Shown piece after piece: positions 10,701 through 64,000 of a DNA stretch of 64,000 nt. Made by a program: the position numbers and the translations under genes. The stretch's first letter is position 1; every line of letters begins with the position of its first letter. This DNA is from Euglena gracilis (lineage: Eukaryota), in NCBI GenBank assembly GCA_039621445.1, contig CP154954.1:36813703-36877702 (forward strand). The letters are read 5' to 3'. The notes under the pieces were generated by a model. That model saw nothing but the letters and a program-made list of their open reading frames with translations. It was not told the origin of the DNA and did no database searches.

Positions 10701-11560
10701 GGGTTTTGGATGGGTGGACCATTTTGGGGGGATTTACCCAGGGGGGTTCCATTCCATTTTTTATCAATTGACATGTTGCTGGGGGGGCATTTTTTGTGTA
10801 CCATTTTAGGCTCTTCTGAATTCACTGGTACAGGGGGGTGTCTCCCCATTATTCCTCCATGGAATGTATTCTCCCAACTAGATGATTTTCTGGGTGCTAG
10901 GTGGAGGGGTTGGACATTCCACGCCTCGTGCCCCTGCGGATTGAGCACTCTCTAAAGGTGGCTGGGGGGGTGTGCATGCTCTGCTCACAGGCTTTCTTAT
11001 CCTCCACTTTGTCATTGGTGTTGTCGATTGACATACCACAGGGGCCCCTTCTTGGGTCTCCCCCTTGCTTAGGCTTGCCCCTGCCATGGGCATTGATAAA
11101 GAAAGTTGAGGGGGGGTGGCCCCCTTGTCCTCCACTGCCCCTGTGGGGGCATCCTCCTGGGACTGCCACAGTACATTAAAGCCCGCCGCTGGCGGACAGC
11201 CTTTTAGCTTCTGGGGCTTCACCCCTTCTGATATTTGATGGCCCCAGTGGTCCTGAATTTGTTGATGTTGTTGATGATAATTCTGGCCCCACTGGCCCTC
11301 TTGAAATTTTGACAGTCCCCATTGACTTCTCTTTGACCTTTTGCTCCATGCCCACTGAAAATCTTGGGGCGCCTCTGGGGGCCCATCCTTTTCCCCTGGT
11401 AGGGTTTGTGATGAAGAAATGGTTGGGGGGTCGTTGTGGACCTGTCCTGCTCCTGCCACTGGGCATCTGTTTGTAGAATCGGCCACCCTGGCCTTGGTAT
11501 TGTTGGCCACCGTGGCCTTTGTTCCATCGGCCACCATGGCATTGCTGTTGTGGCATCCGT
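7702..11560 (-). mobile_element. DIRS copy 1 (minus strand, 5'-truncated in gag)
   Basis: Right terminus at 7702, ICR ~7996-8103, YR ~8118-9000, MT (ANPPW) ~9120-9360, RT ORFs 9010..10344 (YLDD) and 10175..10627. Confidence 0.92.
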
Positions 11561-22015: not shown

Positions 22016-25000
22016 TTGGCAATGCAGCGGAGAAGAAATTGGAATTATATCGCCACGGACGTCCTGGAGGAGTGGCCGCAGCAGCTGGAGACCTTGGAGA
22101 TGCGGTCAACACGTGGCAAACCGTGGCCGTTCTTCCCACCCAGCCCCCCACCCCAGAAATTTCACAGCCCAAAACCCCCCACAGTGACGGCCACGGTCCT
22201 TGGACCACTGTGGCCAGAAGGCCCAGAAGACAGAAGCCAGCCCCAGCCCTTGGTGGGCAAAGACCGGGCCATGGGGGCCCAAAATGCTTCACAATTGGAC
22301 AATGAAAGCCAAAGGCGCCCAGCAACCTGGGCACCAATTGGCCAGAAGATGGGGAGATGGAATCAAGGCCAAGGAGGTCAACACCACAGGGGCCATGGGG
22401 GCCAGTTTCACAAGCAAATCCCCTCAGGAGGGGGGCAGAAAAGGTCTGTCCAACCCCCCCAATTCATCTATCCCAAAAGTCCTTCTCAAGGGGACAAGGG
22501 GGGGCCACAGCAGCCCCCCCAGATTTCCAATGGGGTTGGAGGCCAAGACGAAATCAAGGCCTGGAAGACCACAAGATGGATTATGGAAAAAATTTATACA
22601 TGGAATCCTTGGAGACCAGCAGGGTGGACCCACAGTGGCCACCAAGAAGCTAAAGAACCAGCAGGGTGGACCCACAGTGGCCACCAAGAAGCTAAGGATG
22701 CTGCTGGAGAAATCCCCCGAGGGACCCACAGTGGCCCTCTGCCAACAATGGGGGATAAAGGGACCCACAGTGGCCCTTTCAATGACCCAGCCCCAGGAGG
22801 AAAAGGGACCCACAGTGGCCCTTTTGGAGGGTGGGGCAGAAACCCCTCCAACATTTATTTCTCAATTCCCGATCAATCAATCAAGGGGGGGACCCACAGA
22901 GGCCCCCCTATGGTATGTCAACCAACAACATCAACATGGAGAAGACGAGATAGGCCAAACAGTGGCATTAAGCCCTATCGTATGTCTTCCAAAAACATGA
23001 TCATCCAGAGAGGTGAGCAGAGAGGGAGAGAGTGCATGCACATCCCCCCAGAAAAAATTTCCTTTTTCAAGGGCCCAAGCCCTAGGGGACCTAGGGGTGC
23101 AATGTCCAACACCCCCAGCCCAGCCCCCCCAGAATCATCTTACCCAGAAAATAAATTCAATGGAGGAAATATGGGGAGACACCCCCCTCCATCAAAGGTT
23201 GCAAAAAAGCCTAAAATGTCCAACATCTCCAGCCCAGCCCCCCCAAAATCATCTAATCCAGGAAATAAATTACATGGAAAAAAAATGGGGAGACACCCCC
23301 CTCCATCAAAGGTTGCAAAAAAGCCTAAAATGTCCAACATCTCCAGCCCAGCCCCCCCAAAACCATCTAATCCAGGAAATAAATTTAATGGAAGAAAAAT
23401 GGGGAGACACCCCCCTCCATCAAAGGCTACAAAAAAGCTTGAAATGGTGGGCAAAAAATGCCCCCCAACAACATGTCAACTCATCAGGGATGGCATTCAA
23501 CCCCCCTGGGTCAGCCCACCAAAATTATCCACCCACCCAAAAATCAGGGCAAATTTGAATTTACCCCAAGCAGAAAAAATACTGCTGGATTACGAAAAAT
23601 CTGGATCCATAAAGAGGGTGAGGGATTCAACCACCCAGCACCTGATCCCCTGGTTTCTGATTTCAAAACCAGAGGGGGGGCAGACAAAATGGAGCTTAAT
23701 AAGCGATTGCAGGGAAATAAATCAAAGGTTCCAAGTGAAACCTTTCAAGCTGGATCACATCCAGCACATTTTTCCAGTTTTGGAAAAAGGCCACTGGGCA
23801 GCAAAAATAGACCTGAAGGATGCCTATTTTCATATTCCAGTAAGTCCAGGCCTAAGGCCATTTTTAAGGCATCAGGTGGGGGGGCAGACCTGGGAATTCC
23901 AGGCAGGCTGTTTTGGCCTGAATGTAATGCCCTAAACTTTCATGTCGGTAATGAAGACATTCGAGAAACTGTGGAGGAAAAGGGGCATCCGGGTATTTAT
24001 TTACCTGGACGACATTTTACTGGTGGCCCCAACGCAACTCATCTTACAAAATCACCTGAAAACAGTGGTCAGGGATTTAATCAAATCAGGATTCAAAATC
24101 AATGTGAAAAAGTCCACCCTGCAGCCCACCCAAATCGTCAATCATCTTGGCTTTCAGCTAAACTTCCAAGAGGGAAAATTACAGGTGCCCCCCCCCAGAA
24201 AATAAAAACAGTAAAAAAGGAGCTGGGAAAAATGATGAAAAAAGATTACATGTCAAAAAGGCAACTGGCTGCCATTTTGGGCCAAATCAGATGCAATCTA
24301 ATGGCCCTGCCCTTTCTAAGGGCCTTTACGGATGCCCTGGCAAACTTTTTGGTGGAAAATTCCACAGCCCTGGGACTCAAAACATCCCATTTCCCAAAGA
24401 ATAAAGGACCAATTAAAGGAAATAAAAATTCTGCTGGACACCTGGGGGGGCAGACCCTTCCCCCAAAATGCAACCAGGGAGTTGCACTCAGACAGCAGTA
24501 CCCATGCCTGGGGGGGGCTGGACATTCGAACAGGCAAAATTGTGCAAGAATTTTGGAGGGAAAACTCCACTTTGCACATAAATGTCAAAGAATTAAGTGC
24601 AGCAATAAGCACAGTACAAAGCCTAAGCCAGCCAGGGGAAACTGTGTCCCTATACGTGGACAATCAAGTAATTTACTATTACTTAACAAAAGGGGGGGCA
24701 GAAAGGACCCTTTCAATTCCATGCTAAGACCCTTCTTCAAATGGTGCATGGAACACAACATAAACCTGCAAGTAAAGTGGGTCCCCTCCAAAGACTGCCT
24801 GGCAGACCCCATAAGCAGGTGGGAAATGTACAGGGGGGATTATTCACTGGACCCCCAACTTTTTCAGTGGCTGAGACAGCAGTTCAAAAATTACATCAGC
24901 CTAAAAACAGACCTTTTTGCCTCACCAGGCAACAAAAAAATGCCACAATTTGTGGGCAGGTGGCCCCACTGGGGAGCCACAGCAGTGGATGCATTACAAT

Positions 25001-25180
25001 GTCCACTGGACAACATGGGGGATCTTTATGCAAACCCCCCCTGGTCTGTAATCCAAAAATTTCTCCCCAGATTAAAAATGTTTCCACAGGCCAAAGTTTT
25101 GATGGTCACCACCTACTGGGATTCAGCCACATGGTGGCCCCAGTTAATAAAAACGAAAGTTCCAGGGACCTCTGCCTGAA
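22016..25180 (+). pseudogene. gag-like / RT / RNase H / N6-adenine methyltransferase-like polyprotein region of DIRS copy 3
   Basis: ORFs 22016..23935, 23942..24205, 24332..24727 and 23458..25179 carry successive parts. There is a TAA at 23933-23935 (CAA in copy 1) and frameshifts in G/C runs. Confidence 0.9.
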
Positions 25181-39440: not shown

Positions 39441-41409
39441 CCCAGATCGCGCCACTGTTCAGGTGGGGGGAGTATCCCCAGGATCATTGCAAAAAGCCTG
39501 AAATGGGAACATTTTTCTCGTGAACAAATGAAATCATTCAGTGTCTTTTGTGCACGTGGGCGGCAAATGGTGGATCAATCCAATACCAAAATGACAAAAA
39601 GAAAATATGGCTTTGACACACACCCCAGATTCTTCTTTGTTTGTTTTCAGCATATATTGTCCCCCACATGTTTTGGGAATGCTCACTTGACAGGGGGGGA
39701 ACCAGCAATGTAGGCCAAACAAGAGGTTTTGTTTGGACCAAATTTTGCAAAAAGCTTTTGCCAAAACTTTCCAGAAAATATCAACGTGCCCCGTTGATAT
39801 GGGGCAGGTTTTGAAACAACATAATCCAATGATATTTGCATCTGCGGCATTTTATTTTGAAACCGGTTATTCCAAAAACCCAGATTTCCCAAAAACCTCA
39901 AAATTTGCACAAAAATAATTTGTTCCCAAGAAATGACTCCATTTGGTGCATCTTCTTTGAACTATCACATACTCCTTCAAAACTATTATTTATAACTTTT
40001 GTATTTCTTCTGCTTGAAGGAGCAATGCACATTATGGGGATGGATGTGAAATGCTGCCAAAAAGTATTGAAAAGCCATGCTTGCATCGGTGTAAATGGAG
40101 CAAGATGCCCAGTTGAATAGAACTGGAAAGAAAATAGCCTTGATGGGATGAGACAAGAAGAGGAACAAAACTGCTGTTGCATACACACCACAACCCTCTT
40201 CCTTCCACTCTCCGGACCGGCACGCGCGCGTGTTCCAAAGATGATTCTAATTTTTGTGGCGTTTTATCTCAGCATTGTCTTGTCCCCCCCCCCAATTATT
40301 CCTGGAATATGTGGATACACCAGGAGAGGAAACATAAACACCTCAGAATGCAATTCAAAACAAGCAAAGTGTGCAAAAAGAACACAAAACACAAAAAAAA
40401 TGCAAAAGGGCACAAAATCATTCAGGGATTTCTTGGGGATGCACACTTTTCGACTCAAGAACATTTTCACCTATGCCACAAAAATTTAAGATTCTTGCAA
40501 CACAATGCATATTGATCAATGCATTCATTGAAAATTTCGTTCACACCATTCTAAACCCCCCCTAATAAGTGCACGGGTGCGCGCATTTTAAGGTAGTTTC
40601 GGACCGAAGGGGTGCGCACTTATTAGGGCAGTGCGCACTGTTTAGGGCAAAGCCGAAAATACTCTCGTTTCCCCCACTCTTTTTCAATTTTCTCCCATTT
40701 TGTGATTTCAAAGCTATGAGTCGCGTGATTATGTCTCAAATTTGGGCGGACGATAGAAATATTTGGTTTAGAAAGACAATTCTGAGAATCGTGTGTGCTT
40801 TCCAACCTGAGATGTTACCGTGATTTCTCCTTGGGGAGTTCACTTTTTAGGGAGGTAATTTCGGAACCTTGGGGGAGCACTTATTAGGGAACTGCGCACG
40901 ATTGGGGAACCGCGCACTTATTAGGGGGGGGGTTCACCAAAAAACATTGCATAGAAATATGAGCCAAAAAATGTTTTGCACATTTTTTTTTGAACAAAAA
41001 TGCGCAAAAATGTGCAAAAAATGTCCGTTATTAAAAAAATCAGCACAAAAAGTCAAAAAAAAAACATGCAAAAATAACACAAAAAGAAACACCAAGAGGA
41101 AAGTTACCAAAAGGAAGCATGGTCCAATCCAGCTAAAATCCAGGTCAGTTGGACCGATTTTGTTTTGAAATAAACCCCCCAGAAAACTATTCAAAATGGC
41201 CATTTTTTGCGCTTTGCGGTGCTTTGCGCTTTTCCAGCCACTCCAACTTTATTTCAGCAGATCCTGGAGGGTGGTCTTCAGCCTGGCTGGGAGCTGAAGA
41301 ATGTTGCCTGGCTGGACCCCCCCCCCCTGGAGGCACGGTCAGTTCCATGCCCTCCCAAAACGTGTTGCTGCCCAAACACCCTTTGCTTTGGACTGCTGAA
41401 CAGGAATTA

Positions 41410-42250
41410 AAATTAAAACCCATTTTTCTGGGCCCGCGGCCTGTCTTGATTTCTACTGACTTAAACGGAATTCAAACTGAAATTGTTTAGGTCAGTCGAT
41501 TTCCATTCAGGCGCCGTTTAGGTCAGTCGATTTCCATTCAATTGAAATCTGTTGCTGGTCAGATTCGGAATTTTTGGTGAAATTTTGGACGTTTTGGATT
41601 TCCACGTTTTTGGTCCTGTTGGGTTCTGGAAACTATTTGGACCGACAAAGGCTGAATTTTGCAGTCAGATGATCATAACTGGCTGAACTCAGGATGTCCA
41701 TTTTCATTTTCTGGAAATTCAGAATAACCATTTCTGTACAATTTGGCCAGATTCAGCTGTCATCACTGGTCGTCTGAAAGAGAATCTTTTGATCGAGGGG
41801 TGATTTTGCAACTGTTAAAACCTGTTTTCTGGGACTGACGCCTGTCTTGCAATTCTACTGACATTAAGGGGTTTCAGGCTGAAATTGTTTTGTCGATCCC
41901 GATCCCAATGGTCTAAACTCAGAATTTAAATTTCATTGGTCAAGAATTTGGGGAAATCTGGTTTTTGCCAAAAAATGCCCAAAATAGAACAAAAAAAGTT
42001 GGTTGATTTCCAAGACATTGGATGGAATCTGTTTAGGTCAATTGATTCCCATTCAGGCGCCCGTATAGGTTAATCAATTTCCCTTCAGGCGCCCGTTTAG
42101 GTCGGTCGATTTCCATTCAGGCGCCCGTTAATGGGCCAAAAACCACTTTTTTTTTGGCTATTTCCGTCCACGCGGTTCGGTCGAATGAAATTCAAGACAG
42201 GCGTGCGGGCCCAGACAAAATAGGTTTTAGAAAAATCGACCGACATTAAC
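41410..42250. mobile_element. TIR element with ~30-bp subterminal repeats
   Basis: ttttctgggcccgcggcctgtcttga versus tcaagacaggcgtgcgggcccagacaaaa. Repeats of ggtcagtcgatttccattcaggcgcc. Confidence 0.55.
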
Positions 42251-42704
42251 CAGGTCACCCAAGCCACTTTTGACAACCCCTGGCCGACCCCCCCCCCTGG
42301 GGGGGGGTTGGGCTCAAAACCAGTCAATCACTCTGTAAAACCAGTCAGTCAACCCCCAGGGGTCGGCCAGTGCTTCAGCAATTGACTGCATCCAACCCAA
42401 TCAGAAAAAACTTATGAGTCACTTTGTGTGTGAAAAAACAAACAAAACTGAGAACCTTAGACAGAAAAAATTAAGCAGAAACACAAGGGAAGTGATGTGA
42501 GACCTTGGAATAAGCACCCTGGGTGAAAAATCACAAAATGCCATCAATATACACTTCTGTCTGTTCTGTCATAGAGAACAGCGGTTTTGAAGAAATGCTG
42601 CAAATGCAGGCAAGCAAAGCATGAGGTCCTTGAGGGGGGAAAACACAGCCGACAGCCTCAAAAAATACTCAAAACTGAAAGATCAGCTTCGTCTTTGTCG
42701 CTGC

Positions 42705-42783
42705 TCACTGTTTCTCCTTCTGCTTGTGGAAAGTGATATCCAATGACCTGCCATCTAATGGAAATCCATTGAGTGCCTCAAGT
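42705..42783 (-). CDS. Terminal coding exon of the RRM gene
   Basis: Encodes (A)LEALNGFPLDGRSLDITFHKQKEKQ*, with the TGA at 42705-42707. Confidence 0.85.
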
Positions 42784-45700
42784 GAGGCCAAGCTTTGACT
42801 TAGAACAGCACACAAAATTAAACCGCCAAGCATAAAGAACTCAGCGAATACCCCCAAATAATCCACCTCTGAACCAGGGGTTTTTTTCAAGACCGGGGGG
42901 GGGAGGGGGTCCCGGGGGACCCACAAAAAAATGGCCGAAAAATCGCGAAAAGTGCTAAAAATAGAATTTTTTCGGCGCCTGCAGCGCCGAAAAATATATC
43001 CCACCCCCCTCCGGGGGGACCCCCCCGGGGGGGGGAGGGGGTCCGGCGGACCCACCCACCCTACCCCCCCCCCGGGGGTCCAAACTTAAAAAAATCCCTG
43101 CTCTGAACACAACCAAACAAATCTCCATATAAAATAATTACTCTCACAAACCGAAATAAACATACATCCATTTTCCTTGCTTCCTTTCCATCTATGTGGC
43201 ATGGGATATTGTGAAAATTGCATCTTTGTCTCACAATTTTCATATTTGCTCATTTTATGATGTTTGTTTTCATATTTTTTGTGAGTTTTCAATCTGTTTC
43301 AAAATTGGGGTTTTTTCCTGTTTTCTCCCTCAGCATGAGATTTGTCAAAAAAAACCTTTTTTGCTTCTGGAAAAAATTTTCTTCATGTTTTCCCTTTGTG
43401 CTGAAGACAATGGCTATCAAGCTGTGACGGGCTTGACTTTTTATGAAATAAATGTCGCTGAAACAGTGAAATTGACTCAAAGAGAAAGACATTGACTTCA
43501 ATTCTGAATCCACCATCAAATACCCTCAACCCCCCCAGATTGTCCCCTACCCCAAGATGGCCATTCGGCCTGGAAGAAGTTTTGAACCCCCCGTGCCAGA
43601 TGGGGAAAATTGGCCGGCGCTGGGGGGTCAGGTTGGGCCAAACAGAGGAGGGGGTAAAGTTGGGGGTGGCCAAATTCGGCCCACACAGCTCAGGGAGTCA
43701 ATAACCAGGGGCAGGGGGGTCAATACCCGGGGGAGGGGATAAACAAAACTCCTTTGGTGCCAAAAGCAACGAAAGCAGCAAAATTTCCAACGACAACAAA
43801 ATAATGAGTAAAGCTTGGGACAAAATCAAAAAGAATTATTGCCCTAACTACTAATGACTGTTTAAAAAAATACTCAAAAAAGGAACAATAAACCTTGAGC
43901 GACAAAAGAAAAATGTGCAAAATTGGGTGGTCCATGGTGGTCCATAACATGTGGAGCGATGCGCCAGGAGGTGAGAAATTTTGGTCCAGCGTTCGCGCAG
44001 GACCTGAAATGATTTGATTTTGGGGCCCCCTCCTTATGTGAAAGCCCCAATTGCGTACATTTTATTCTTCTGGAACAAGGCGCTGCAATTGCAAAAAAAA
44101 ACCCGAAATTTCCACTCGATTTTTTGTGTATTCACAGAAGCGAAGCAGGAAACATAGGGATTCTCTCCAGCCGGATGTTTTCGAAGGGCCTCAAGGGGTT
44201 TTAAAATTTGGAGAGGGGGTCAGGGCAGGTTTCTTGTTTGGATTTTCAAATATGAGACCCCACTTCCAGCCATGCTTGTGCTTACCAACCGGGGGGGGGG
44301 GGTGGGTGCTATAGGGTGCCTGCCCCTAGCAGGCCCCCCCCCCCCGGGGGGGGGGGATAGGGGTCCAGGCCGGACCCAGAACATTTTCATTGAAAATGGC
44401 CGTTTCCGGGCCCCCGGCGCCTTCGGCGCCGGGGTCGGAGGGGGGTGCCTGCTAGGGGCAGGCACCCTCCGAAACCCTACCCCCCCCCGGGGGGGGGGGT
44501 CGGATCGGGTGCTATGGGGTGCCTGCCCCTAGCACCCACCCCCCCCCGTGGGGTAGGCACCCGACTAAGCACAAGCCTGCTTCCAGCCATACATCTCTTT
44601 AAGGACCCCGGGGGGGGGTTGCTGGGCTAGGGCTAGAAATTTGGGCTGGCTAGAAATTTGGGCTGGCTAGCCCGCCCCCCCCCCCCCGGGGGGGGGGGCT
44701 AGGCCCCGGCTGGACCCGAACCGGGGCGAGCTGGACTGAAATCGGAAAAATGCCCAAAAATGACCTGCAGAACACAGTTTTGAAAAAATGATGCATCTGA
44801 AACCCCCCAAAAATGCCCCAAACGCCCCCCAAACCCCATTTTTGGCCACTTTTGAACACAATTTTTCAAAAAATTTCGGCTGGACCCCCCAAAAAGGGGC
44901 TGGCTAGCTGGGCTAGCAGCACCCCCCCCCGGGGGGGGGTGCTGCTGCGGCTGGGCTGGGCCCAAATCGGGGCTGGCTGCAGCCGCCCCCCCCCCCCGGG
45001 GGGGGTTCGCAAAACCTTAGAGATCTATGCTTCCAGCCTTCACTTTGCCTTGTTTTCTTTTTCTTGTCAAAAATCAGGCCACCGAGAAGAGGACATATAG
45101 TCGACAGTGGCAAGACCTCATCCGCATTGGCTAAGCTGATCTCGACATTCCCTCGAAATCTTGGCTGAAAAGAAAAAACCCACCTGGATTTGGGCCTTTT
45201 TGCCTGTTTCTGGGTTCCCGCCGGGTCCAGCCCAGTAGCTGGTAGGACCTCCCCTGGATCTCCCCCTCCCCGAGGGGTGGTAGAGCCTGAAACCTTTTTC
45301 CAGCCATCCATTCCCTGACAGCAACCCAGGGACAACTGCCCAGGGACATTCAAATTCCATCATTTTGCGGGTTTTTTTTGGAAATTTCAGCATTTTGGCG
45401 GATTTGCACTTTTCCACCAGAATCCCAAGACAACCTAAGATTGCGCGCTCCAGTTCAGTTTGCCCCAGTCAGATTGTTGCAGGTGAACAGAAAACCCCAA
45501 AAAAGTTTCAAAAAGGCTACTTTGGTCATTTTGATTCCTTTTTTCAGTTGAATCCGGCTTCGGCAGGCTGCAAAAAGTTTATTGCCGCTCGACCCCTTGG
45601 GGGCAGGAAGGCCTGGTGGGGGGGGGGTCGGACCCCCCACCCGGGAGGTGGGGGGGGTGGGCCGAAAATTTTGCTTTAGAAGAGATTGCTTGTACCCCAG

Positions 45701-48700
45701 AGTTTGCTGTCAGAGAAAAATTTTGGAAGCGGATGTGAAGTGTGGCCATCTCTGTGTGAATGTTTGACATTCCAATGCGAGACATTGAGGAACAGCTTTG
45801 GAGCAGTTTTTTGGAAGATTCCTTCGCCTCCCACATTTGTGAAACTTTGAGTGCTAGCTTTGCCCCACTTTTGGATGGAAGATGCGAAGTCATCTTGTAG
45901 GATCAATATGCAGACCATACATCTCTCTAAGGACCCCGGGGGGGGGGTTGCTGGGCTAGGGCTAGAAATTTGGGCTGGCTAGAAATTTGGGCTGGCTAGC
46001 CCGCCCCCCCCCCCGGGGGGGGGGCTGGACCCCGGCTGGACCCGAACCGGGGCGAGCTGGACTGAAATCGGAAAAATGCCCAAAAATGACCTGCAGAACA
46101 CAGTTTTGAAAAAATGATGCATCTGAAACCCCCCAAAAATGCCCCAAACGCCCCCCAAACCCCATTTTTGGCCACTTTTGAACACAGTTTTTCAAAAAAT
46201 TTCGGCGCTTCGCGCCGAAAAATTTTGGGCTGGACCCCCCAAAAAGGGGCTGGCTAGCTGGGCTAGCAGCACCCCCCCCCCGGGGGGGGTGCTGCTGCGG
46301 CTGGGCTGGGCCCAAATCAGGGCTGGCTGCAGCCGCCCCCCCCCCCCCCGGGGGGGTTCGCAAAACCTTAGAGAGATGTATGATGCAGACCCTTGAAGAC
46401 ATTCCCACCAACTCCATTTGAATCTTAACATCTGCTGTGAAATTTTCAGTTCCTTGGTTCAGATTGTTTCAGACGGGTTTCCCTGCAAAATTGTCCATCA
46501 GGGCCTAAATTTCATGGGCAGGGGTTTTTTTAAGACCGGGGGGGTCCCCCCCCCCACCCACCCACCCCCTGGGGGGGGTCCCGGGGGACCCACAAAAAAA
46601 TGGCCGAAAATCGCGAAAAGTGCTGAAAATAGAATTTTTTCGGCGCCTTCGGCGCCGAAAAATATATCCCACCCCCCTCCGGGGGGACCCCCCCAGGGGG
46701 GGGGGGCTCGGCCGGACCCACCCACCCTACCCCCCCCCAGGGGGTCCATGACTAAAAAAACCCCTGTTCATGGGTCAGAGGGGCCAATTATTCATGTCCC
46801 CGGGGGCCCTAAAGATACGTCCTCCATTCTCCCATTTCCTGCCCGGCGGGGGGCCAACGAAAATGTCCGGCCGGGTCCAACAATTGTGTCTGTCGGCTGT
46901 AAGGCGGGACCCCACCATTGCCCTCCAGGGGGGGGGGGTCCAGCCAGCCAGCCAGCACTTTTTTTCCCAGTCAGCAGCTCCAAGTTGGGCTGCAACCCCC
47001 CCCCTTTCCGCGGGCACCGATTTTTAGGTCAAAGTTTTCCTTCGGCGCCGAAGGAATTCTCTTTGAGCAGGTGCCATGGTGGGTGGGGGGGTCATGGTGG
47101 GTTTTGTGATCACTGCGCATCATGCAAGCCAGAGGCAACCGCTAATATGACGAGACGCACTGCTCTTAAACATTTGGGGCTCTGTGGTCACCTTCAAATT
47201 TTTTTTTAAAAAACCAAAAACGGTTTTTGGGGTTTTTTTATGATCCTCTTTTTTCAAAAAAAAAAAACTCTAGCTGTGGAACCAGACAGGGGGTCCTGGA
47301 CATCCTCAACCCTATCCTATGGACCAAACCTGTCCACCTAAAAATTCACAAAAAATGTCTTTTCCAGAATAAATTGTTGCTTTTCCAGGAACCTCACCAA
47401 CCTGTCACAAATGATTCTCCAACGTTCAGGAAAAAACGGCTCCGTGGTTCATCACCAGGTGATCTAGGACGCAAAATGGATATCATCTGGATTTGATGAA
47501 TCACAAATCGTTCTGGTTGACGAACGTGCAATATCATTCACTTAAAATGTTTGTTTCAGACCTTTGTTTTGTGAAACCCGACAAAAGAAAATCTCTGTTT
47601 TCCGGGTTTTGTTATTCTAAAAGAAGTGGCCCGGGTGGCATTTCCCCTCCCTCATTGGCCAAAGAAGGGGTGCAGCCCGCCAAGGGGCGGTGTTGATGCA
47701 ACCAATTTACCCTTGAAGTGTTTACACGTCTGCACCTCACAACCCAATAGCAAATAAGCAGTTCGTGGAGGTCTAGTCTGCTCCTTGCAGTCTTTTCCAT
47801 CCACCCAGAAAAACGTCATTGGTCTCACACAGAAGTGTCCACGGGGGCTCAACAAAAATGCCTTTGGGGGTCTAAATTTCTCGTCCACCGGGGATCAATA
47901 ATTGTGTCCGTTTCTCGGGAATGTGTTCGTGAGGGACAACAAAACTTGGCCGGGAGGGATCTTCATTTTGTCCAAAATTCCCTACTCGGGTGTCCGCTAG
48001 CTGTAAGAAAGTCCCTGGTTGTCATGCAGCCCCCCCCCCCCCACCCCACCCCAGGAGGCTGTCCTAAAGGTTTTCAAATATTTTCCACACGCTGTATAAA
48101 TGGGTTGCTGGTCAGAGTTGTAAGAACCCATGGGAGTGTGGGGGATAACAGCAACTACCACGTTGGGGCGCTTCTGAGGATCCTCTGTGTCAAAGCTTGT
48201 CTGCAGCCCTCGCATCAGCTGCCCTCATGAATTTTGTTGGTAGCCCCCTTAATCAAGAAAACCTTCATCAAAATAAACCACCCACCCATCACCCCATTAC
48301 TCCAGCATGGGGCTCGCATAGGGGGGCAGGGTATTAATGAGAGAGGGGAGGGGGGAGGGGGGTTGTCCTGGACCCCCTCCCCACTGGGCTTAAAAAAAAC
48401 CGGTGAAGCGTGGAAAAATTTTTGAGGGGCTTTAAAAAAAATGCCCAAAATTGTGTTTTCAGGTGATTTTTTTCTCCAAAATGACAACGGCCCTGGGGGG
48501 AAGGGGGGTGGTCTGGACCCCCCCGCACAAAACCAACGCTCACTTGATACCCTGCGGGGGGAGTGAGGGTTCGTTATAAAAGCAGGTGGGGATGGACAAA
48601 AAAAAACTTTGACCGCCAGAATTTTCCCAGAATATTTTCAGCACATGTTGTCGAAAATGCAAAAAAAATTCTGCGCAAAGCGGCAGAAGGAACAAATTTG

Positions 48701-51700
48701 AGCTTTTAGGTGGGGGATGGTCCCGGGTACTCCCTCTCCTGGGTGGATCAGACAAGAAGGAGATTGAAAACCACATTATTCCAGCCAAATCAGAAATACA
48801 CCTCAAACTTTGGACCACATGCTCCCCATCCCCAATACAGCAAAAAAGCAGAGCGTTTGTGAAAAGAACACGCACACATGTCAAAATGCGAGTGTTTCGT
48901 GCATTTTAATAGATACCTGAGTCAGACAGTACACAGTTTTAGCAATCTTTTGGTCTCTTGAACCATTTGATAAGAGAGGGTTGAGCCAGAGAACACTTGG
49001 CGCATAAAACAGAGTGTTTCCCGTCAACAGAAGTCCAAAAAGCCTATTTTTTTACACCCGGCGCAAAGTGCCGAAGGTTTTTGGGGCCGCACACAAGGGT
49101 AATTAATTAGATCCAATTAGATGGTGGGTGGGCAAGGGGTGGGGGGGGTAATGGTGGCGGTGGTGCTGGTAGGATTATTGAATTGCATTGTACCTTCCCT
49201 GACAAGTCTGAGGATTTAACTCACAGACAGCCAGCATGGTCCGGGAACAGAATGATCCTCCCCCAATTTATTGTGCGTGTGTGTGTGTGTGTGTGTGCCC
49301 GACGGGGGGTCATACCCTGACCTGCAACCCCCGACCGGGGGGGGGGGTCGCGCAACCAGGTGCCAAAAAAACCTGGTTATTTCAGGTCAACTACAACCCC
49401 CCGGGGGGGCTGCTGCTGCTGCTGTTAAACTCTCCCCCAAATAATACCCCCCCCCCTCAGGGTCTGACTTCGGCCGCCAAAATAATACCCTCCCAGGCTT
49501 TTGCTTAAGGAACCCCGGGGGGGGGGGTACTGGCTAGGCAATCGGCTAGACACTGGAAAAAAATGGACTAGCTAGACCCCCTCCCCCCCCCGGGGGGGTC
49601 CGGGGGTCCCCCCAACTGGAAAAAATTTTTCCTCCAGCGCTGCGCGCCGAGGTAAAAATGAGGTTTTTAACAGATTTTTGGCTGATTTTGTTCCAAAAAA
49701 TTACCAAAAAATGGCCATTTTTGGGGGTCCCCAAAAAAAAATTCCGGCGCTTCGCGCCGGTCACTGGAAAAAAATTTTTCACTACCAATTTTCCACTACC
49801 ATGCCCCCCCATATAAGACCCCCGGGGGGTACTGCAATCCCTTAAGCAGAAGCCTGCCCCCCCCCCCCGGTGTCGGGACGAAGGCCCAGGTTTTTGACCT
49901 GAAAATGTAGGTAAAAAATACAGTTTCTGACAACAAATTACGAAAAAAAAATTGATTTTTCTGGATGGCCTCAAAAAAAAAGCTAAATTTCATGAGAAAG
50001 TACAAAAAATGACCCCAAAGGGGAGTTTTGGCGCTATTTTTGCTCCTACGGAACTCCAAAAAATTTCAATTTTTTTTTCGGAATTATACCCCCCCCCCCC
50101 GGGCCGGGACTTCGGGCGAAAAAATGATACCCGGGGGGGGGGTGTTATTTGGGGGGGGGTTTACCACTGCCCTGCCATCAGCACTATTCCCTCAAACATA
50201 ATACTAAAGATATAAACATTGGTGGTGGTGTTGTTGTTATTGTTGTTGATTATTCTTATTATAATTCACTTTGCTTTTATTGTTTATTGATCATTTTGAC
50301 ATCAAATTGTTTCATTCACCATGAGAAATTGATGATGAACTGCATTAAAGATACTTAGAGGGCTAGGCACAAATCCGTAACCCTTGGATAAACCACGACT
50401 GAAATCCATTTCGACACGAATGGAGGCAATTGCTCCAAATTGAGCAAAAAGACGATACATAGCAAGCTCATCCACATTGCTGGATAAAGACGGAACCAGG
50501 CTTCTTTTTAAGACCGTGTCCTGGTCTGTGAACCACAGCCCCTGCCCCCCCCTTCTTTCAGGTAACCCTTGATCTTCGACACCGCATTGCAGCATCGAAG
50601 AGTGGGCGGAGGTGAGGTGTGTCCGTTAAAAACAAAAAAAATGGTGACTCCATGCTACTTTTGACTCACGTTTTACTCACCATTTCAGAGTCCTTTTACT
50701 ATAAGCCATAGGTACGGCAGAAATGTCCAAAAATCAGACCCTCCTGAATGTGTGCCAAAAATCGGGTCGTTTCAGGAAGCGATTTCCTGCTTCATTACTC
50801 TCCTGATTTCACTGTTCTGAGTTAAATAGAAGCCCGAACCGAACGAATAAATTTGAGCCCTCCTCAGGGGCTTCGGCGCTCACCACAGGGATGTGAACTT
50901 GCTTGTTGCGCAATTGCATTGGAATTGTTGCATATGCAAAATCTTGATACGGATCCAAAGCTGGATAGGTGTAACTTCGCCCAAGTGGATGTTGTCCACC
51001 AAACACAGATGATGCCAGGGGATTATAGAACACCATGGGGGAGCAGGCTGGCGGAAAACACTGGCAATCCCTTCAACCCCACTCCATCCCCTCAGAAGCA
51101 CGGACTTGAAAAAGAGGAAACTTAAAAGCAGAGCTGGTGTGAGGCAAAACAGTCTACCCGTCAGAGGTTCTCAAGGACCCAAGGGGGGGGGAGTCCCATG
51201 GGCCGGCTGAAAAAAAAGTGCTGTCTGGACCCCCCCCTTAATTCGGAACCCCCTGAAGCAGGGCAGAACGGGAAAGCCTGGTGGGGGGGGTCCGACCCAC
51301 CCCCACCCAGGAGGTGGGGGGAGGGTCGGACCCCCCCACCCACCATAGCGTTTTCACCAATTTTGGGAAAGCGGGGATTTTGGCCGGGGAAATTTTTTTG
51401 AAAAATGAACCCAAAATACATGACTTTTTTTTATGGAAAACCACATATTTTTTTTCACAAAAAAAATCTCGAAAATTTTAGGTTTAAAAATTAGGTTTAG
51501 GTTTAAATTTTAGGTTTAAAAAAAAAGAGAAGTGTGGAAAAAAAAACGAAGGTCAAAAAAAATTGGTCAAAATTTTTTTGGCACACTCGAATTTTACTGA
51601 AATTTTTTTCTTGGAAATTTTTGGATTTTCAATGGCATTTTTTTGCTTCAAAAACCTCTCAAAATCAAAATTTTGAGAAAATGTTGAAATTTTGGAAGGT

Positions 51701-54700
51701 GCGAAAAAATGGGGGTTTGGGGGTTTTGTAACCTGCGACTGAGGGGTGGTCGTAAATGAGGGGTGGTTGAAATACAAAGGGGGGGGGCAGGTGATGTGAG
51801 GGATCAGAGAGAAAGGACCAAAACAATTTCAGTACCCAAGGCGGTTTTGAACCATTGCTCAAAATTTATCCCCAAAATGACAATTCTATCATAAATACTC
51901 AGTCGATGCCGGGGGGGGGGGGGTTGCAGTCCTGCTGGAAACTGGAAGCTGCTGGCAAGGGGTAATCAATAATTGGCGTTCATAAATGGGGGCCATTCTG
52001 GCTTCAGGAATCCCCTGGAAGGCATGTAGAATTGTGGGTTTGCGTCGCGAAAATTTCTCTTCTTTGAAATAAACAGCATCTCCACGAATGCAAGCGTTGA
52101 AAAAATGAATGCAAAAAAAACTGATGTCCTTCCTGCGACCATTCAATTTGGCCAAACAACGCCCCCGTGACGCCTGCAACTGAGGGGGAAAGGGGGAAAA
52201 TGCCTGCAGCTGAGGGGGCCCCCAGGATTTTCTTGAGGCCCGGGGGGTCCTGTGGGAGGGCTGCTGGAAGAAAGGTGCTGGCTGGGCTCCGTGCGGATTC
52301 CTGGGGGTGCTCATCCTGGGGGTGATGCCGACCTGTGGTCGGCCCGACCCCTGTTGGTGGGATACCGACCTCTGGGGGTCGGGCCGACCTGGTCGGCCCG
52401 ACCCCCAGAAATCCGCATTACCCCCCCCACCTTTTGGAAAATTAAGCCCCCCCCCCTTCGTTTGAATAGATGAATTGTTATGTGAGGTAAAAATTTAATT
52501 AAAAAAATGAGAAAAAAACCCTTTTATCTGCCAACCCCTTTCATTAACAAAATAAACCCCTTTTATCCGCCAACCCCTTTTCGGGTGCAAGTCGACCTAA
52601 CCCTATCCCTTTCGTTAACAAAATAAACCCCTTTTATCCGCCAACCCCTTCTCGCATGCAAGTCGACCTAACCCTATCCCTTTCATTAACAAAATAAACC
52701 CCTTTTATCTGCCAACCCCTTTTCGGGTGCAAGTCGACCTAACCCTATCCCTTTCATTAACAAAATAAACCCCGTTTATCTGCCAACCCCTTCTCGGGTG
52801 CAAGTCAACCTAACCCTATCCCTTTCATTAACAAAATAAACCCCTTTTATCTGCCAACCCCTTTTCGGGTGCAAGTCGACCTAACCCTATACCTTTCATT
52901 AACAAAATAAACCCCTTTTGTCTGCCAACCCCTTCTCGGGTGCAAGTCGACCTAACCCTATCCCTTTCATTAACAAAATAAACCCCTTTCATCTGCCAAC
53001 CCTTTTCGGGTGCATGTTGATCTCGTCTTTTGGAAACCCGGGGGGGGGGGAGCTTAAATTTCCAAGTCGACCTAAACCATCCCTTTCATTAACAAAATAA
53101 ACTTCTTTTATCTGCCAACCCCTTTTCGGGTGCAAGTCGACCTAACCCTATCCCTTTCATTAACAAAATAAACCCCGTTTATCTGCCAACCCCTTCTCGG
53201 GTGCAAATCGACCTAACCCTATCCCTTTCATTAACAAAATAAACCCCTTTTATCTGCCAACCCCTTTTCGGGTGCATGTTGATCTCGTCTTTTGGAAACC
53301 CGGGGGGGGGTTAAATTTCCAAAGAGGGGGGGGGTAATGCAGATTTCTGGGGGTGATACCGACCTGGTCGGCATCACCCCCAGGGGTAGTTACCGACCTG
53401 GTCGGCCCGACCATGGTCGGGCCGACCAGGTGGTCGGGCCGACCAGGTCGGCATCACCCCCAGGATGGTCACCCCCAGGAATCCGCCCGGGGCCTGCTGG
53501 CTGGGCCGGCTGGCTGGGAGCTGGACTCAGCAGGTATCCAAAAAGTGCCCAAAAACACCCAAATCCAGCTGGGTTGGCATTACTCAGCCAAATTTTGAGG
53601 TGAAGGTCCAAAAAACCACCCAAAAATGAAATTCTGGGCCATTTTTGACCCGTTTCCAAAATTTTCGGCTGCTTGTGCCGAAATCATTTTCAATAAAGCC
53701 TGGTTTTGGAAGGAGGGGACCCTGCCTGCCCCAATGTGTTCGACCCACAATCTTGGAAGGCACATTTGAATGGGAGAAGACGGTGGATGGGCAGGGTATA
53801 AAATGAGATGGGGAGGAGGGGGTTCTGGAACCCTCCCCCAGAGGGGGTGAGTCAGCCCCCTCCCAGAGCAAAAAAATTCAGCACAAAATGCCAGAAAATC
53901 TTTGGGCCTTGAAAAAAGCCCAAAGGTGAGTGGCTTGGGTGGACCAAAAAAAGGCAACAACCAAAACAGTATTTCATTGCTGTTATAATCGTGGTGAACA
54001 GCAGCATTATGGAGTCAAAAAGAATGCTTTTAAATGAACTTTCCCAAATACTCAACGGCATTGTTTTTGAAAAATTGTGATTGTTCAAAAGGAAAAAGTG
54101 CCAACCTTCGTATTGGCTTCTGTTTCATGGCTGGTGGCCTTGGTCAGTGGATGTTTCTTTCAGGGGGGGGAATAATTGATATCGGAGGCCTTCGGAAAAA
54201 TTGCGGAAAAATTGCGGAAAAATTGCGGAAATTGCGGAAAAATTGCGGAAAAATTGATATCGGGTATACACATTTCTGTCTGAGGGGACTTAGAAATTTT
54301 TCAATTGTGAGGTTCAGAACACCGCAACACCCACGTCGATGCAGGCGAGCACAAATCAACACGCTTGATGTTTTTTGCACAGGTGGGACGCACCCAATCC
54401 TGTGACCAGTGGTGCACCTGTGAGAAAAATTGGTAAACTGGGGGGGGAAAAAACAAAACGCAATAGCACACCTGTTGATACATTTGAAGAATGGCTTGAA
54501 CTCATTGCATCTTCCATCTTCGGTGGTGGGAAAAAAATTCTGCGGAAAAAAAATGGGAAAAAATTGCGGAAATTGCGGAAAAATTGCGGAAAATTGCGGA
54601 AAATTGCGGAAAATTGCGGAAATTGCGGAAAAATTGCGGATATCAATTTTCCCCCCCTGTTCTTTTTTAAAAAAATTGAACTGCAAGCAATCAGAAGGGG

Positions 54701-55018
54701 CACAGGGCAACCAGCAAGGCAAGACAACGATGAATGGGCGGGGGGGGGGGGGAATGGAGAGCAGGAGGGAGATGAAAAAGGTGGGGCAGGATACAGAAGC
54801 ATGTCCCCATTTTGAAAACCATCAAATGAAATCTGACAAAGAGAAACACTCGCAAGATTGTGAGCTGTCGTGTGCCTGCTGCTTTCGCAGCTTGGATCGA
54901 GGATTGTCAGCTGGCTTCAATTCCAAAGGTTTATCATGCCCCTCAATGTATGTGCCATTCAATGCTTTGATGCAATTATCAGCATCCTCAGCCGCTGTGA
55001 ATTCAATGAGTCCATATC
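42705..55018 (-). CDS. Spliced multi-RRM RNA-binding protein gene (ELAV/Hu- or CELF-like), 3' part; exons at ~54876-55018, 50840-~51059, 50369-50491, 48203-48235, 42705-42783
   Basis: Joining the last four exons gives an uninterrupted RRM: EEGSNLFVR|SLSSNVDELAMYRLFAQFGAIASIRVEMDFSRGLSKGYGFV|KFMRAADARAA|LEALNGFPLDGRSLDITFHKQKEKQ* (RNP2 NLFV, RNP1 KGYGFV, LNG motif). All three junctions are phase 2. An upstream exon encodes the C-half of another RRM. The 5' exons were not located. Confidence 0.85.
42875..43100. mobile_element. hAT-like MITE family A
   Basis: Same TIR and body as 35250. TSD ctctgaac. Confidence 0.9.
44271..44579. mobile_element. hAT-like MITE family D
   Basis: TIR catgcttgtgctta/taagcacaagcctg. 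TSD cttccagc. Confidence 0.9.
44588..45029. mobile_element. hAT-like MITE family C
   Basis: TIR catacatctct.taagg. TSD cttccagc. Confidence 0.9.
45916..46382. mobile_element. hAT-like MITE family C
   Basis: Perfect 17-bp TIR catacatctctctaagg. TSD atgcagac. Confidence 0.92.
46519..46766. mobile_element. hAT-like MITE family A
   Basis: TSD ttcatggg. Confidence 0.9.
48203..48235 (-). CDS. 33-bp micro-exon of the RRM
   Basis: Encodes (V)KFMRAADARA(A). Found because both of its flanks are complementary to the neighbouring exon flanks, and it keeps the frame. Confidence 0.85.
48236..50368 (-). other. Nonconventional intron, 2133 bp
   Basis: Starts gcc-TAGCCCTCT and ends AGGGGGCTA-ccaac. 9-bp stem (8 WC plus 1 G.U) in the same +4/-6 register. 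Confidence 0.8.
49494..49856. mobile_element. MITE with caggctt(t/c)tgcttaagg TIRs, nested in a family E element (~49425-50163)
   Basis: caggcttttgcttaagg ... ccttaagcagaagcctg. Confidence 0.75.
50369..50491 (-). CDS. Exon: RRM core (123 bp)
   Basis: Encodes SLSSNVDELAMYRLFAQFGAIASIRVEMDFSRGLSKGYGF(V), containing RNP1. Confidence 0.9.
50492..50839 (-). other. Nonconventional (intermediate-type: GT start, non-AG end) intron, 348 bp
   Basis: Starts gtt-CGGGCTTCTATTTAA and ends TTAAAAAGAAGCCTG-gttcc. 13 of 15 positions pair Watson-Crick plus one G.U. CTG lies at -8..-6. Confidence 0.85.
50840..51059 (-). CDS. Exon: inter-RRM linker plus RNP2 of the terminal RRM (5' boundary uncertain, 51036-51059)
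   Basis: ORF 50809..51036 ends ...VSAEAPEEGSNLFVR. The 3' boundary at 50840 is fixed by frame and by intron-end pairing. Confidence 0.75.
52293..53486. mobile_element. TIR element carrying a 71-bp tandem array
   Basis: Long imperfect TIRs gcggattcctgggggtg.../...cacccccaggaatccgc. Confidence 0.75.
52520..53290. repeat. 71-bp minisatellite, ~10 units
   Basis: Unit tttcattaacaaaataaaccccttttatctgccaaccccttttcgggtgcaagtcgacctaaccctatccc starts at 52610, 52681, 52752 and so on. Confidence 0.95.
54161..54659. mobile_element. TIR element with a 6-bp TSD carrying aaaattgcgg arrays
   Basis: TIR cagggggggg.a..aattgatatc/gatatcaatttt.cccccctg with ttcttt on both sides. Confidence 0.8.
54876..55018 (-). 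CDS. Exon encoding the C-terminal half of an upstream RRM (boundaries approximate)
   Basis: Manual minus-strand translation: YGLIEFTAAEDADNCIKALNGTYIEGHDKPLELKPADNPRSKLRKQQ, resembling ELAV/CELF RRM2 (ALNG...KPLxVKFAD type). An in-frame TGA directly upstream limits the exon start to 55018 or below. Not in the ORF track. Confidence 0.75.
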
Positions 55019-55184
55019 ACACCATTGTCCCCAACATGGGTGGATGGAATGGAGGTAGACTCCAAAATGTCTTCCTATGCGAGCTAAACCCCCCCAGATA
55101 ATACCCCCCCCGGGGGATTATTTTTTTCGCCCGAAGTCCCGGCCCGAGGGGGGGGGGGGGGCTCCCGGATCTGGCATGGGGGGG

Positions 55185-56460
55185 GGTTGTGGGGATCGAC
55201 CATGGTCGGCCCACGGTTGCCTCGGTCGTGGGGGGGTCGACCGAGAAGGTTGTGGGGGTCGACCGAGGGCGACCATGGTCGACCCCCACCCCACAGACGG
55301 ACCCCCCCTTTTTTGCAAGGTTGGTCGCCCTCGGTCGACCCACACAACATGACCGTCCATGTTCGCGGGCCCCAAGACAAACAAAATTTTTTCAATCCAT
55401 TTTGGGAGGCAAATCCCCTTTGTTGCCCAACTGTCTGCCCAAATCCCTTGTGCTACCCACCCGTTTTCCGGGGCAAATCCCTTTTTGTTGCTCAACTGTT
55501 TGAGGGCCCCAAAAAAACAAAATCCCTTGTGTTAGCCACCTGACGGGTGGGTAACACAAGGGGATTTGTTATTTTGGGGCCCTCGGACAGTTGAGCAACA
55601 AAGGGGATTTGCCCCCCAAAACTTGAGGGTAACACAAGGGATTTGTTATTTCGGGGCCCTCAAACAGTTGAGCAATAAAGGGTATTTGCCCCCCAAAATG
55701 GGTGGGTAACACAAGGGATTTGCTCCTCAAAACGGGTGGGGAACACAGGGGCAAATTCCCCTTGTTGCTCAACTGTTCAAGGGCCCCAAAATAACAAAAT
55801 CCCTTGTGTTACCCACCATACATCTCTTCAAGGACCCCGGGGGGGGGTTGCTGGGCTAGGGCTAGAAATTTGGGCTGGCTAGCCCGCCCCCCCCCCGGGG
55901 GGGGGGGGGGGGGGGGGCTGGGCCCCGGCTGGACCCGAACCGGGGCGAGCTGGACTGAAATCGGAAAAATGCCCAAAAATGACCTGCAGAACACAGTTTT
56001 GAAAAAATGATGCATCTGAAACCCCCCAAAATGCCCCAAACGCCCCCCAAACCCCATTTTTGGCCACTTTTGAACACAATTTTTCAAAAAATTTCGGCGC
56101 TTTGCGCCGAAAAATTTTGGGCTGGACCCCAAAAAAAGGGGCTGGCTAGCTGGGCTAGCAGCACCCCCCCCCCCGGGGGGGTGCTGCTGCGGCTGGGTTT
56201 GCCCCAAATGGGGGCTTGCTTCTGCCGCCCCCCCCCCCCCCGGGGGGTTCGCAAAACCTTAGAGAGATGTATGTTACCCACCCCCTTTGTGGGGGTCGAC
56301 CGAGGGCGACCGACCTTGGAAGGGGGGGGGGTCCAGCTGTGGGGTGGGGGTCGACCATGGTCGCCCTCGGTCGACCCCCACAACCGCAGCTCGGTCGCCC
56401 TCGGTCCCCCCCACGACCGAGGCGACCGCGGGCCGACCATGGTCGACCCCCACAACCCCC
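55185..56460. mobile_element. Foldback element with ~160-bp TIRs of gtcgaccgagggcgacc motifs
   Basis: 55190-55345 is the inverted counterpart of 56285-56460. Internal inverted aaatcccttgtgttacccacc repeats. Confidence 0.7.
55817..56273. mobile_element. hAT-like MITE family C
   Basis: TSD ttacccac. Confidence 0.9.
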
Positions 56461-63410: not shown

Positions 63411-64000
63411 TCTCAAAAAACGAGGAATTTTTTGTTGAACCCCGGAAAGGTTTGGAGCAGGCTTCTTTAAGTGAACGTCCTTTTTTGGCCCCCCAAAAGC
63501 CCCCCCCCCCCCCCGGACCTCCTCTTCCTTCCCTTTTTGGGGGTGGGTGCTGGGCACCCCCCTCCCTCTTAAAAAAAGAACTCTTCCCTTCTTTCCGGCT
63601 TTATCCCAAAGTGCCTTGCATTCACCTCCCCCCCCCGTCTCACAGTTCCGTGGCTGCTGGTGGTGGCTGGTCCCCCTCCTCACCGCCATCGGCGCCGCCA
63701 GCTGGACACGCAGGGCGGCGCTGTGAAAATGGTCAGTTCGGGGGTGGCCAGGCGATTTCCCTTTGGGAATGCACCCACACAAACTGGGCGATGAGGATTT
63801 TCTCACAAAAGAAATCCCCCCCCAATCCTGGTTGGTGAACATGTGGTGACCCCAAACGTATTTCTCAGTGCAAAGTGGCAAATCTTCTCTGCGGTGGGGG
63901 GTCGGCACGCCGTGGCGAGGTTTCCGGCTAGGGGGGGGGGAGGGGGGTTTTTGGCGTTTTTTGGCGTGGCGAGAGTGGCAAACGGTAGACTGGGGGGGGG

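Follow-up and report, generated by a model that had tools for sequence, protein, structure and literature searches.

RNA joins and paired intron ends at a two-RRM gene of Euglena gracilis with kilobase-long introns and micro-exons

The window analysed here is a stretch of 64,000 nucleotides of Euglena gracilis DNA (assembly GCA_039621445.1, contig CP154954.1, positions 36,813,703 to 36,877,702 of the forward strand), and all coordinates below are those of the window. On its minus strand lies what is very probably a nuclear gene for a small RNA-binding protein with two RNA recognition motifs (RRMs), split by the nonconventional introns of euglenids into exons of 23 to 171 coding nt, with introns of 348 to 5419 nt between them. 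An earlier sequence-only reading had proposed an RRM gene at 42705-51059, made of four minus-strand segments (51036-50840, 50491-50369, 48235-48203 and 42783-42705) that, when joined, give 432 nt in frame with a complete RRM at the end; the product reads ...EEGSNLFVR / SLSSNVDEL...KGYGFV / KFMRAADARAA / LEALNGFPLDGRSLDITFHKQKEKQ*. The three introns of that proposal and its 33-nt micro-exon proved right, whereas its 5' limit did not. What it missed were at least two upstream introns, a micro-exon of 23 nt, the first RRM and an intron in the 3' untranslated region (3' UTR). The features are given below in the order in which the minus strand is read. In the intron ends, capitals mark the triplets that face each other and the letter after the slash is the first base of the next exon; a slide is the distance over which a border can be moved without changing the joined product.

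54855..55016, minus strand: exon for the C-terminal half of RRM1 and the linker (YGLIEF...SQS), reading YGLIEFTAAEDADNCIKALNGTYIEGHDKPLELKPAD...; RNA evidence sets the 3' end at 54855
52044..54854, minus strand: intron A, 2811 nt, TG..AC, no slide; ends tgc-GAG ... TTC-gcgac / g
52021..52043, minus strand: 23-nt micro-exon, coding for ANPQFYM plus 2 bases, frame kept; absent from the earlier proposal
51011..52020, minus strand: intron B, 1010 nt, TT..TC or CT..AT (slide 1), containing ATG 51036; ends ttc-CAG ... CTG-gcatc / a
50840..51010, minus strand: exon for linker and the RNP2 start of RRM2, ending ...EEGSNLFVR; contig cover 50838-51010
50492..50839, minus strand: intron 1, 348 nt, GT..CC, in other slides TT..CG or TC..GT; ends gtt-CGG ... 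CTG-gttcc / g
50369..50491, minus strand: RRM2 core exon with RNP1, 123 nt, SLSSNVDEL...KGYGFV
48236..50368, minus strand: intron 2, 2133 nt, GC..AC, no slide; ends gcc-TAG ... CTA-ccaac / a, with a U-A closing pair instead of C-G
48203..48235, minus strand: 33-nt micro-exon, KFMRAADARAA, with an RNA joint on either side
42784..48202, minus strand: intron 3, 5419 nt, AG..TC, in other slides GA..CA or CA..CT; ends aga-CAA ... TTG-gcctc / a
42591..42783, minus strand: last coding exon (LEALNGFPLDGRSLDITFHKQKEKQ) with its stop codon at 42707-42705, followed by the initial 114 nt of the 3' UTR
40161..42590, minus strand: intron U, in the 3' UTR, 2430 nt, starting 114 nt past the stop codon
39700..40160, minus strand: further 3' UTR exon, lower limit approximate

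The evidence that carries this structure comes from four runs placed on 42300-52400, of which X21 and X24 are raw RNA-seq reads and X15 and X17 are contigs. We considered the best 15 of 27 joints, and four of these belong to the RRM gene. Their coordinates are given on the plus strand.

42782>48202: 5419 nt skipped, slide 2; X24 11 reads, X21 2 reads, X15 1 contig, X17 1 contig
48235>50369: 2133 nt skipped, slide 0; X24 20 reads, X21 2 reads, X15 1 contig, X17 1 contig
50489>50838: 348 nt skipped, slide 2; X24 7 reads, X21 1 read, X15 1 contig, X17 1 contig
51010>52021: 1010 nt skipped, slide 1; X24 8 reads, X21 11 reads, X15 1 contig, X17 1 contig

Introns B, 1, 2 and 3 are thus removed in RNA, with their joints present in 4/4 runs. 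For introns 1, 2 and 3 the predicted lengths of 348, 2133 and 5419 nt and the predicted ends GT..CC, GC..AC and AG..TC agree with the joints, which slide by 0 to 2 bases with the predicted cut inside each slide, and all three of the joins that had been put forward for RNA-seq (50840/50491, 50369/48235 and 48203/42783) were found. The 20 X24 reads over 48235>50369 come from 15 distinct start positions. All joint reads of X24, a stranded run, have their first mate on the plus strand (46/46), which for the usual stranded library places the RNA on the minus strand. Contig record 1 of X15 (901 nt) and contig record 7 of X17 (1315 nt) show zero differing letters from the window over 42591-42782, 50369-50489 and 50838-51010. 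The 5' limit of 51059 and the start codon ATG 51036 that had been proposed did not survive this comparison: because joint 51010>52021 skips 51011-52020, the ATG and the whole of 51011-51059 are intronic, within intron B, and the exon starts at 51010.

The remaining two introns were located from places at which reads or contigs leave the window sequence, the next 30 letters being matched to the window. Joint 51010>52021 has a side of only 23 letters, and X15 and X17 both leave the window sequence at 52043; this is the basis of the 23-nt micro-exon. The 30-mer that follows in both contigs has a unique match at 54855-54884; the contigs therefore resume there, past an intron of 2811 nt (intron A). 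Similarly, loose ends at 42591 (13 X24 reads, X15 and X17) carry a 30-mer that uniquely matches 40131-40160, so that the transcript resumes at 40160 after an intron of 2430 nt (intron U). Contig record 7 of X17 runs 461 nt past 42591, all of which would sit in 39700..40160 if no other intron intervenes. The 64-kb window contains a single copy of the 23-nt micro-exon. The 33-nt micro-exon, which had been predicted and has an RNA joint at each end, is likewise present in one copy, also when 2 mismatches are allowed. A further loose-end consensus at 49856 (X24, agreement 0.5) has no match in the window and was read as repeat-derived. The 3' UTR intron at 40161-42590 may represent a different flavour of intron, or a feature relevant to nonsense-mediated decay.

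RNA reads differ from the window at exon positions 50959, 50967, 50845, 48211, 42618 and 42691. At 50959, A>G is present in 9/9 X24 reads, at 50967 A>G is present in 7/9, and at 48211 C>T is present in 7/21. Differences of strain, allele or paralogue cannot be told apart here without matched DNA.

Exon peptides were searched singly against Pfam, for which the RRM_1 family (PF00076) has a gathering score of 20.7 bits. The peptide of the 123-nt exon alone reached 29.4 bits (E=7.6e-7, profile positions 6-43 of 70) and that of exon 54855..55016 reached 23.0 bits (E=7.2e-5, profile positions 41-67 of 70). No Pfam match at E<=1 was obtained for the last exon (25 aa) or for the 65-aa peptide of 51036-50842, the first segment of the sequence-only reading, when each was searched alone; the 65-aa peptide also matched none of the longer proteins. 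A comparison of the 40-aa peptide of the 123-nt exon with longer proteins gave three matches, P0001 (97 aa), P0002 (238 aa) and P0003 (258 aa). The last two are two-RRM proteins, P0002 with two RRM_1 stretches (E=2.2e-33). With P0002 and P0003 as queries, tblastn recovered every exon that was found, the 33-nt micro-exon included: P0002 residues 46-95 fall on exon 54855..55016 (E=8.5e-13), residues 111-162 on exon 50840..51010 and residues 211-236 on the last coding exon, and the 33-nt micro-exon shares 9/11 residues with residues 204-214. In the RRM alignment this micro-exon occupies what we take to be helix alpha-2 of the fold. The spliced peptide, built by coordinates, is colinear with both homologues, with identities of 114/193 to P0002 and 93/189 to P0003, zero gaps at the joins and gaps only in the linker between the RRMs, and it carries both RNP1 and RNP2. 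The earlier proposal of an RRM coding sequence put together only through introns that lack GT-AG and pair at their ends, with a 33-nt micro-exon among its pieces, is upheld by the RNA joints, by this gap-free alignment at every join and by the rarity in controls of the intron-end helices described below. The RRM that had been recognised is the second of a two-RRM protein.

The third match, P0001, illustrates the earlier statement that standard gene finders would miss this gene. It is a 97-aa open reading frame (ORF) call at 50302-50625 on the minus strand, 100% identical to the 40-aa exon peptide, and its frame continues across both borders of the 123-nt exon; like the window's own proteins, it stands in the protein database without a source or name. 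It is a wrong ORF call and a concrete example of mis-annotation. As to function, the best solved structures for P0002 are the two-RRM proteins PABP (1.6e-41), Sex-lethal (6.8e-21) and HuC of the ELAV/Hu group (3.4e-20); this likeness is that of RRMs in general and says nothing about orthology or RNA target.

Of RRM1, the N-terminal half (about 45 aa) was not found in the window. An in-frame stop at 55019 limits exon 54855..55016, whose 5' end would be there or slightly lower. When P0002 and P0003 were used as tblastn queries (E<=50), none of the minus-strand matches above 55016 was credible. Scans for RNP-type motifs gave nothing, and the ORFs above 55016 included no RRM-like piece. Donors able to pair with a presumed acceptor near 55017 were limited to candidates of 7-8 bp, with no RRM-like peptide upstream of them. 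The missing N-terminal exons lie either past base 64000 or in pieces too short for detection.

We now turn to the borders. In every slide compatible with the mRNA, 5/5 coding-region introns have ends other than GT/GC-AG. It might nevertheless be supposed that the conventional spliceosome uses GT/GC-AG sites close by and that the pairing of the ends is incidental. In-frame GT/GC-AG pairs within 30 nt of the borders do exist (11 for intron 1, 9 for intron 2, 7 for intron 3 and 10 for intron A), and intron 1 can be written with a GT start. However, intron B has zero such alternatives, the GT-AG alternatives for intron 1 (50839-50504 and 50839-50501) would add 3-4 residues that are absent from P0002 and P0003, and the nonconventional junctions appear in 4/4 runs, with no GT/GC-AG junction among the best 15 of the 27 joints. 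That nearby GT-AG sites might account for the joins had been named beforehand as a possible refutation of the gene, and we now regard this explanation, which the joints already contradict as far as the main isoform is concerned, as highly improbable.

What the borders share is a fixed register, in which intron base +4 stands opposite base -6, after a 5' spacer of 3 nt and before a 3' spacer of 5 nt. Both spacers are present in 5/5 coding-region introns, the first base of the downstream exon is a purine in 5/5 (G for A, A for B, G for 1, A for 2 and A for 3), and the triplets pair in register (+4:-6, +5:-7, +6:-8) in 5/5, with one G-U in intron A. Counting G-U, the contiguous in-register pairs number 3 for intron A, 9 for B, 9 for 1, 9 for 2 and 11 for 3; the 9-bp helix of intron 2 includes G-U pairs and the 11-bp helix of intron 3 is perfect. 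Stems of 9-15 bp had been claimed for introns 1 to 3, which is fair if interrupted extensions are counted, the contiguous in-register values being 9, 9 and 11. Among 5000 random position pairs with matching spans from the same window, at least 3 pairs occurred in 583, at least 9 in 7 and at least 11 in 2. Further, in the 15.6 kb of pre-mRNA the only sequence able to pair fully with the 5' arm of intron 3 is the 3' arm of the same intron. Beyond a one-base bulge, intron A has a second helix of 10 bp, and its 20-nt ends fold into an interrupted helix of 16 bp at -17.6 kcal/mol.

This regularity also bears on a second possibility, that the copy in the window is a dead gene broken by insertions and that the transcripts derive from an intron-less or otherwise structured copy elsewhere. 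In its favour, the introns hold a great many dispersed repeats of kinds abundant in the RNA contigs, and the reads carry the few variant exon letters described above (e.g. 50959, 50967 and 48211). Against this, both contigs are identical to the window exons over 192+121+173 nt, and every interruption of the coding region combines N3/N5 spacing with an in-register helix and with a purine as the first base of the next exon, which random insertions would not give. In addition, of the words sampled from 50300-51100, an interval that includes intron 1, 14 runs of DNA type contain 0.87-0.90. (Six small runs, guessed to be RNA, contain 0.30 of these words, which is about what is expected from the exons alone.) We assign very little probability to a dead copy and retain the reading of an expressed gene with nonconventional introns.

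Several observations weigh against that reading or weaken it in part. That X15 and X17 consist of RNA is a guess. For intron A no more than 3 pairs are in register, a number reached by 583/5000 random controls. The 3' UTR intron pairs over 6+6 bp with a shift of two positions from the register, and C is the first base of the exon after it. An energy test in the style of Gao et al., in which the 10-nt intron ends were joined by seven U, gave -12.9 kcal/mol for intron B, -7.5 for 1, -4.7 for 2, -5.8 for 3, -4.7 for A and 0.0 for U, with control p values of 0.003, 0.035, 0.13, 0.08, 0.13 and 1.0, respectively, which for the individual intron is weak. Energy alone is a weak guide because DNA rich in G and C runs folds readily, and it is therefore the register test that carries the argument. 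The 9-bp 5' arms have several equally good partners in the 15.6-kb pre-mRNA (9 for intron B, 5 for 1 and 7 for 2), so that pairing alone is insufficient for specificity. Introns 2 (TAG/CTA), 3 (CAA/TTG) and A (GAG/TTC) depart from the CDG/CH'G letters of the published Euglena code, with spacing, register and purine kept. Finally, among the best 15 of the 27 joints, in libraries not known to retain circles, no joint that goes back was located at an intron end, as would be expected of a circular intron. The joints 48052>44671 and 48052>46332 do go back, at C/G homopolymer repeats away from the intron ends, and for this reason were read as signals of repeats or of template switching.

The intron class is that of the Euglena nonconventional introns, which is already published and abundant in Euglena. 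Nomura et al. 2025 (PMC12501133) report that nonconventional introns make up 71.8% of Euglena agilis introns and define genetically a code, 5'-N3CDG-/-CH'GN5-6|R, of which CGG-CTG is a tested working derivative; 61.2% of the nonconventional introns of E. agilis fall within the code and 38.8% outside it, and borders that slide through direct repeats are found in 84.4% of its introns (PMC12501133). The same terminal pairing was described in E. gracilis by Gao et al. 2024 (PMC11170887). Since the register described here is that of the published code and the class comprises that 71.8% of introns in E. agilis, the phenomenon as such is already known. Like their published counterparts, our introns lack GT-AG, have spacers of 3 nt and 5 nt and a CAG/CTG-type helix between their ends, are followed by a purine that opens the next exon, have borders that slide through short direct repeats (3/4 RNA joints), and coexist in number within one gene. 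Introns B (CAG/CTG) and 1 (CGG/CTG), 2/5 of those in the coding region, match the code letter for letter, and the 3' UTR intron does not fit it.

In length, the introns stay within the range of E. gracilis, for which mean lengths of about 520-540 nt are given, with the longest introns at 4682 and 5931 nt (PMC11170887). Four of the five coding-region introns, at 1.0-5.4 kb, are far over that mean and approach the 5931-nt maximum. A further difference from the published nonconventional introns is that two of the exons they flank have only 23 and 33 nt. We found no mention of micro-exons in the accessible text of PMC12501133, whose supplements may list such variants, and no paper on micro-exons in Euglena.

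Two other classes invite comparison. 'Intermediate' introns of euglenids have reportedly been described by Milanowski et al. in 2016. Hybrid introns form a class of 0.8% according to PMC12501133. Intron 1 resembles such intermediate or hybrid introns in that, in one slide, it starts with GT and also has the nonconventional helix, but its 3' end is CC, CG or GT and never AG. The second class is found in the hemistasiid diplonemids Artemidia and Namystynia, in which about 97% of introns are noncanonical with pairing ends (Thakur et al. 2025, PMC12621601), and this raises the question whether the contig itself derives from a hemistasiid diplonemid, a euglenozoan lineage other than Euglena in which most introns lack GT-AG. 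The variable terminal dinucleotides and the extensive pairing of the ends are indeed alike. However, the noncanonical introns of the two genera have medians of only 37 and 91 nt and G/C-rich ends with no defined motif reported (PMC12621601), whereas those of the window have 348-5419 nt and the N3-CAG/CTG-N5|R layout of Euglena. The authors caution that long introns were perhaps missed in draft assemblies (PMC12621601). The type of intron and the repeat-rich surroundings point by themselves to a euglenid, most likely a species of Euglena. A diplonemid origin appears extremely improbable, and Euglena nonconventional introns remain the class to which we assign these.

Taken together, the data show the joins in minus-strand RNA, a colinear RRM protein as their product, and helices that stand in the published register. 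As a mechanism, and by analogy with the literature, a helix between the two ends of the intron would form in place of GT-AG borders. It would start at +4, after the 3-nt spacer, and at -6, before the 5-nt spacer and the purine of the next exon, and it would bring the two splice sites close to each other for precise excision of the intron; published work suggests that the helix would also place the cuts at fixed distances. By the same analogy, pairing is probably required for these particular introns, and they may leave as circles, as has been reported for nonconventional introns (Guminska 2021, as cited in PMC12501133).

The three introns that depart from the published letters are of interest in this connection. 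In a knock-in cassette, the single substitutions TAG (5') and CTA (3') each abolished splicing (PMC12501133). Intron 2 carries TAG and CTA together; pairing is thereby restored, and the intron is spliced in vivo (20 X24 reads). Introns 3 (CAA/TTG) and A (GAG/TTC) behave in the same way. We offer as a tentative idea, which we do not favour, that these three are natural compensated variants of the code and that, if this were general, the machinery would measure the end of the helix at a fixed distance of 3 nt and 5 nt instead of recognising C and G. If so, this measurement would work across 5.4 kb and around exons of 23-33 nt. A further determinant would still be called for, because the pre-mRNA offers each 9-bp arm 5-9 partners of equal quality. 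The frequency of such triplet pairs may already be addressed in the supplements of PMC12501133.

The introns and their surroundings contain many repeats. Intron A holds a tandem array at 52463-53356 with a 71-bp unit in about 10 copies of up to 97% identity, and intron 3 has 27 runs of at least 6 G and 26 runs of at least 6 C. Another repeat, dispersed and about 330-450 bp long, has long G-runs and C-runs at its limits and occurs at 44606-45005, 45935-46355 and 55835-56247; two of its copies lie inside intron 3, and it is very abundant in the contigs of RNA type, with a word depth of 563-749 in the bin 44659-44995. Many RNA reads have poly-C loose ends at 44687, 46332-46349 and 48029-48052, and X21 contains odd joints at 46349>48030, 48052>46332 (which goes back) and 48052>48362 (opposite strands), with 13-18 start positions. 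These joints at poly-C sites are probably transcripts of repeats or template switching at homopolymers. Microsatellites of the type (TG/CA)n are present at 2421-2774 and, inside intron 2, at 49265-49306, the latter having been excluded as a repeat from read placement. An origin of the introns from elements resembling miniature inverted-repeat transposable elements, with a target-site duplication and a terminal inverted repeat, was considered by eye for four introns; a flanking direct repeat (GGTTC) was present at intron 1 only. Rfam gave 0 matches over the whole window.

Away from the gene there are retroelement remnants at 9013-10681 (minus strand), 11415-13106 (plus), 17319-18044 (plus) and 23443-25176 (plus). 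ORFs with reverse-transcriptase matches (RVT_1) lie in the first (two, E=9.9e-13 and 3.4e-6) and at 17319-18044 (E=1.4e-6). A weak Dam-methylase-like match in the ORF at 23443-25176 (E=0.0033) falls short of the Pfam cut-off. The stretch 11415-13106 was grouped with them by eye only, on ORF likeness, and its scanned part, 12252-13106, has a weak PCIF1_WW match below the cut-off. This combination is reminiscent of elements of the DIRS type.

As a whole, these results indicate that the reading of sequence alone, by way of the complement of the intron start, can recover a real gene structure where gene finders based on GT-AG fail. For biology, the locus joins the Euglena genes that contain nonconventional introns, a class known genome-wide. 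What it adds is small and consists of well-documented extremes: an 11-bp helix, unique in the pre-mRNA, that delimits an intron of 5.4 kb; two micro-exons (23 nt and 33 nt) between kilobase-long introns; and three spliced introns in which the register is kept and the published C/G letters are not. In the existing knock-in assay, such examples could be put to use as natural substrates.

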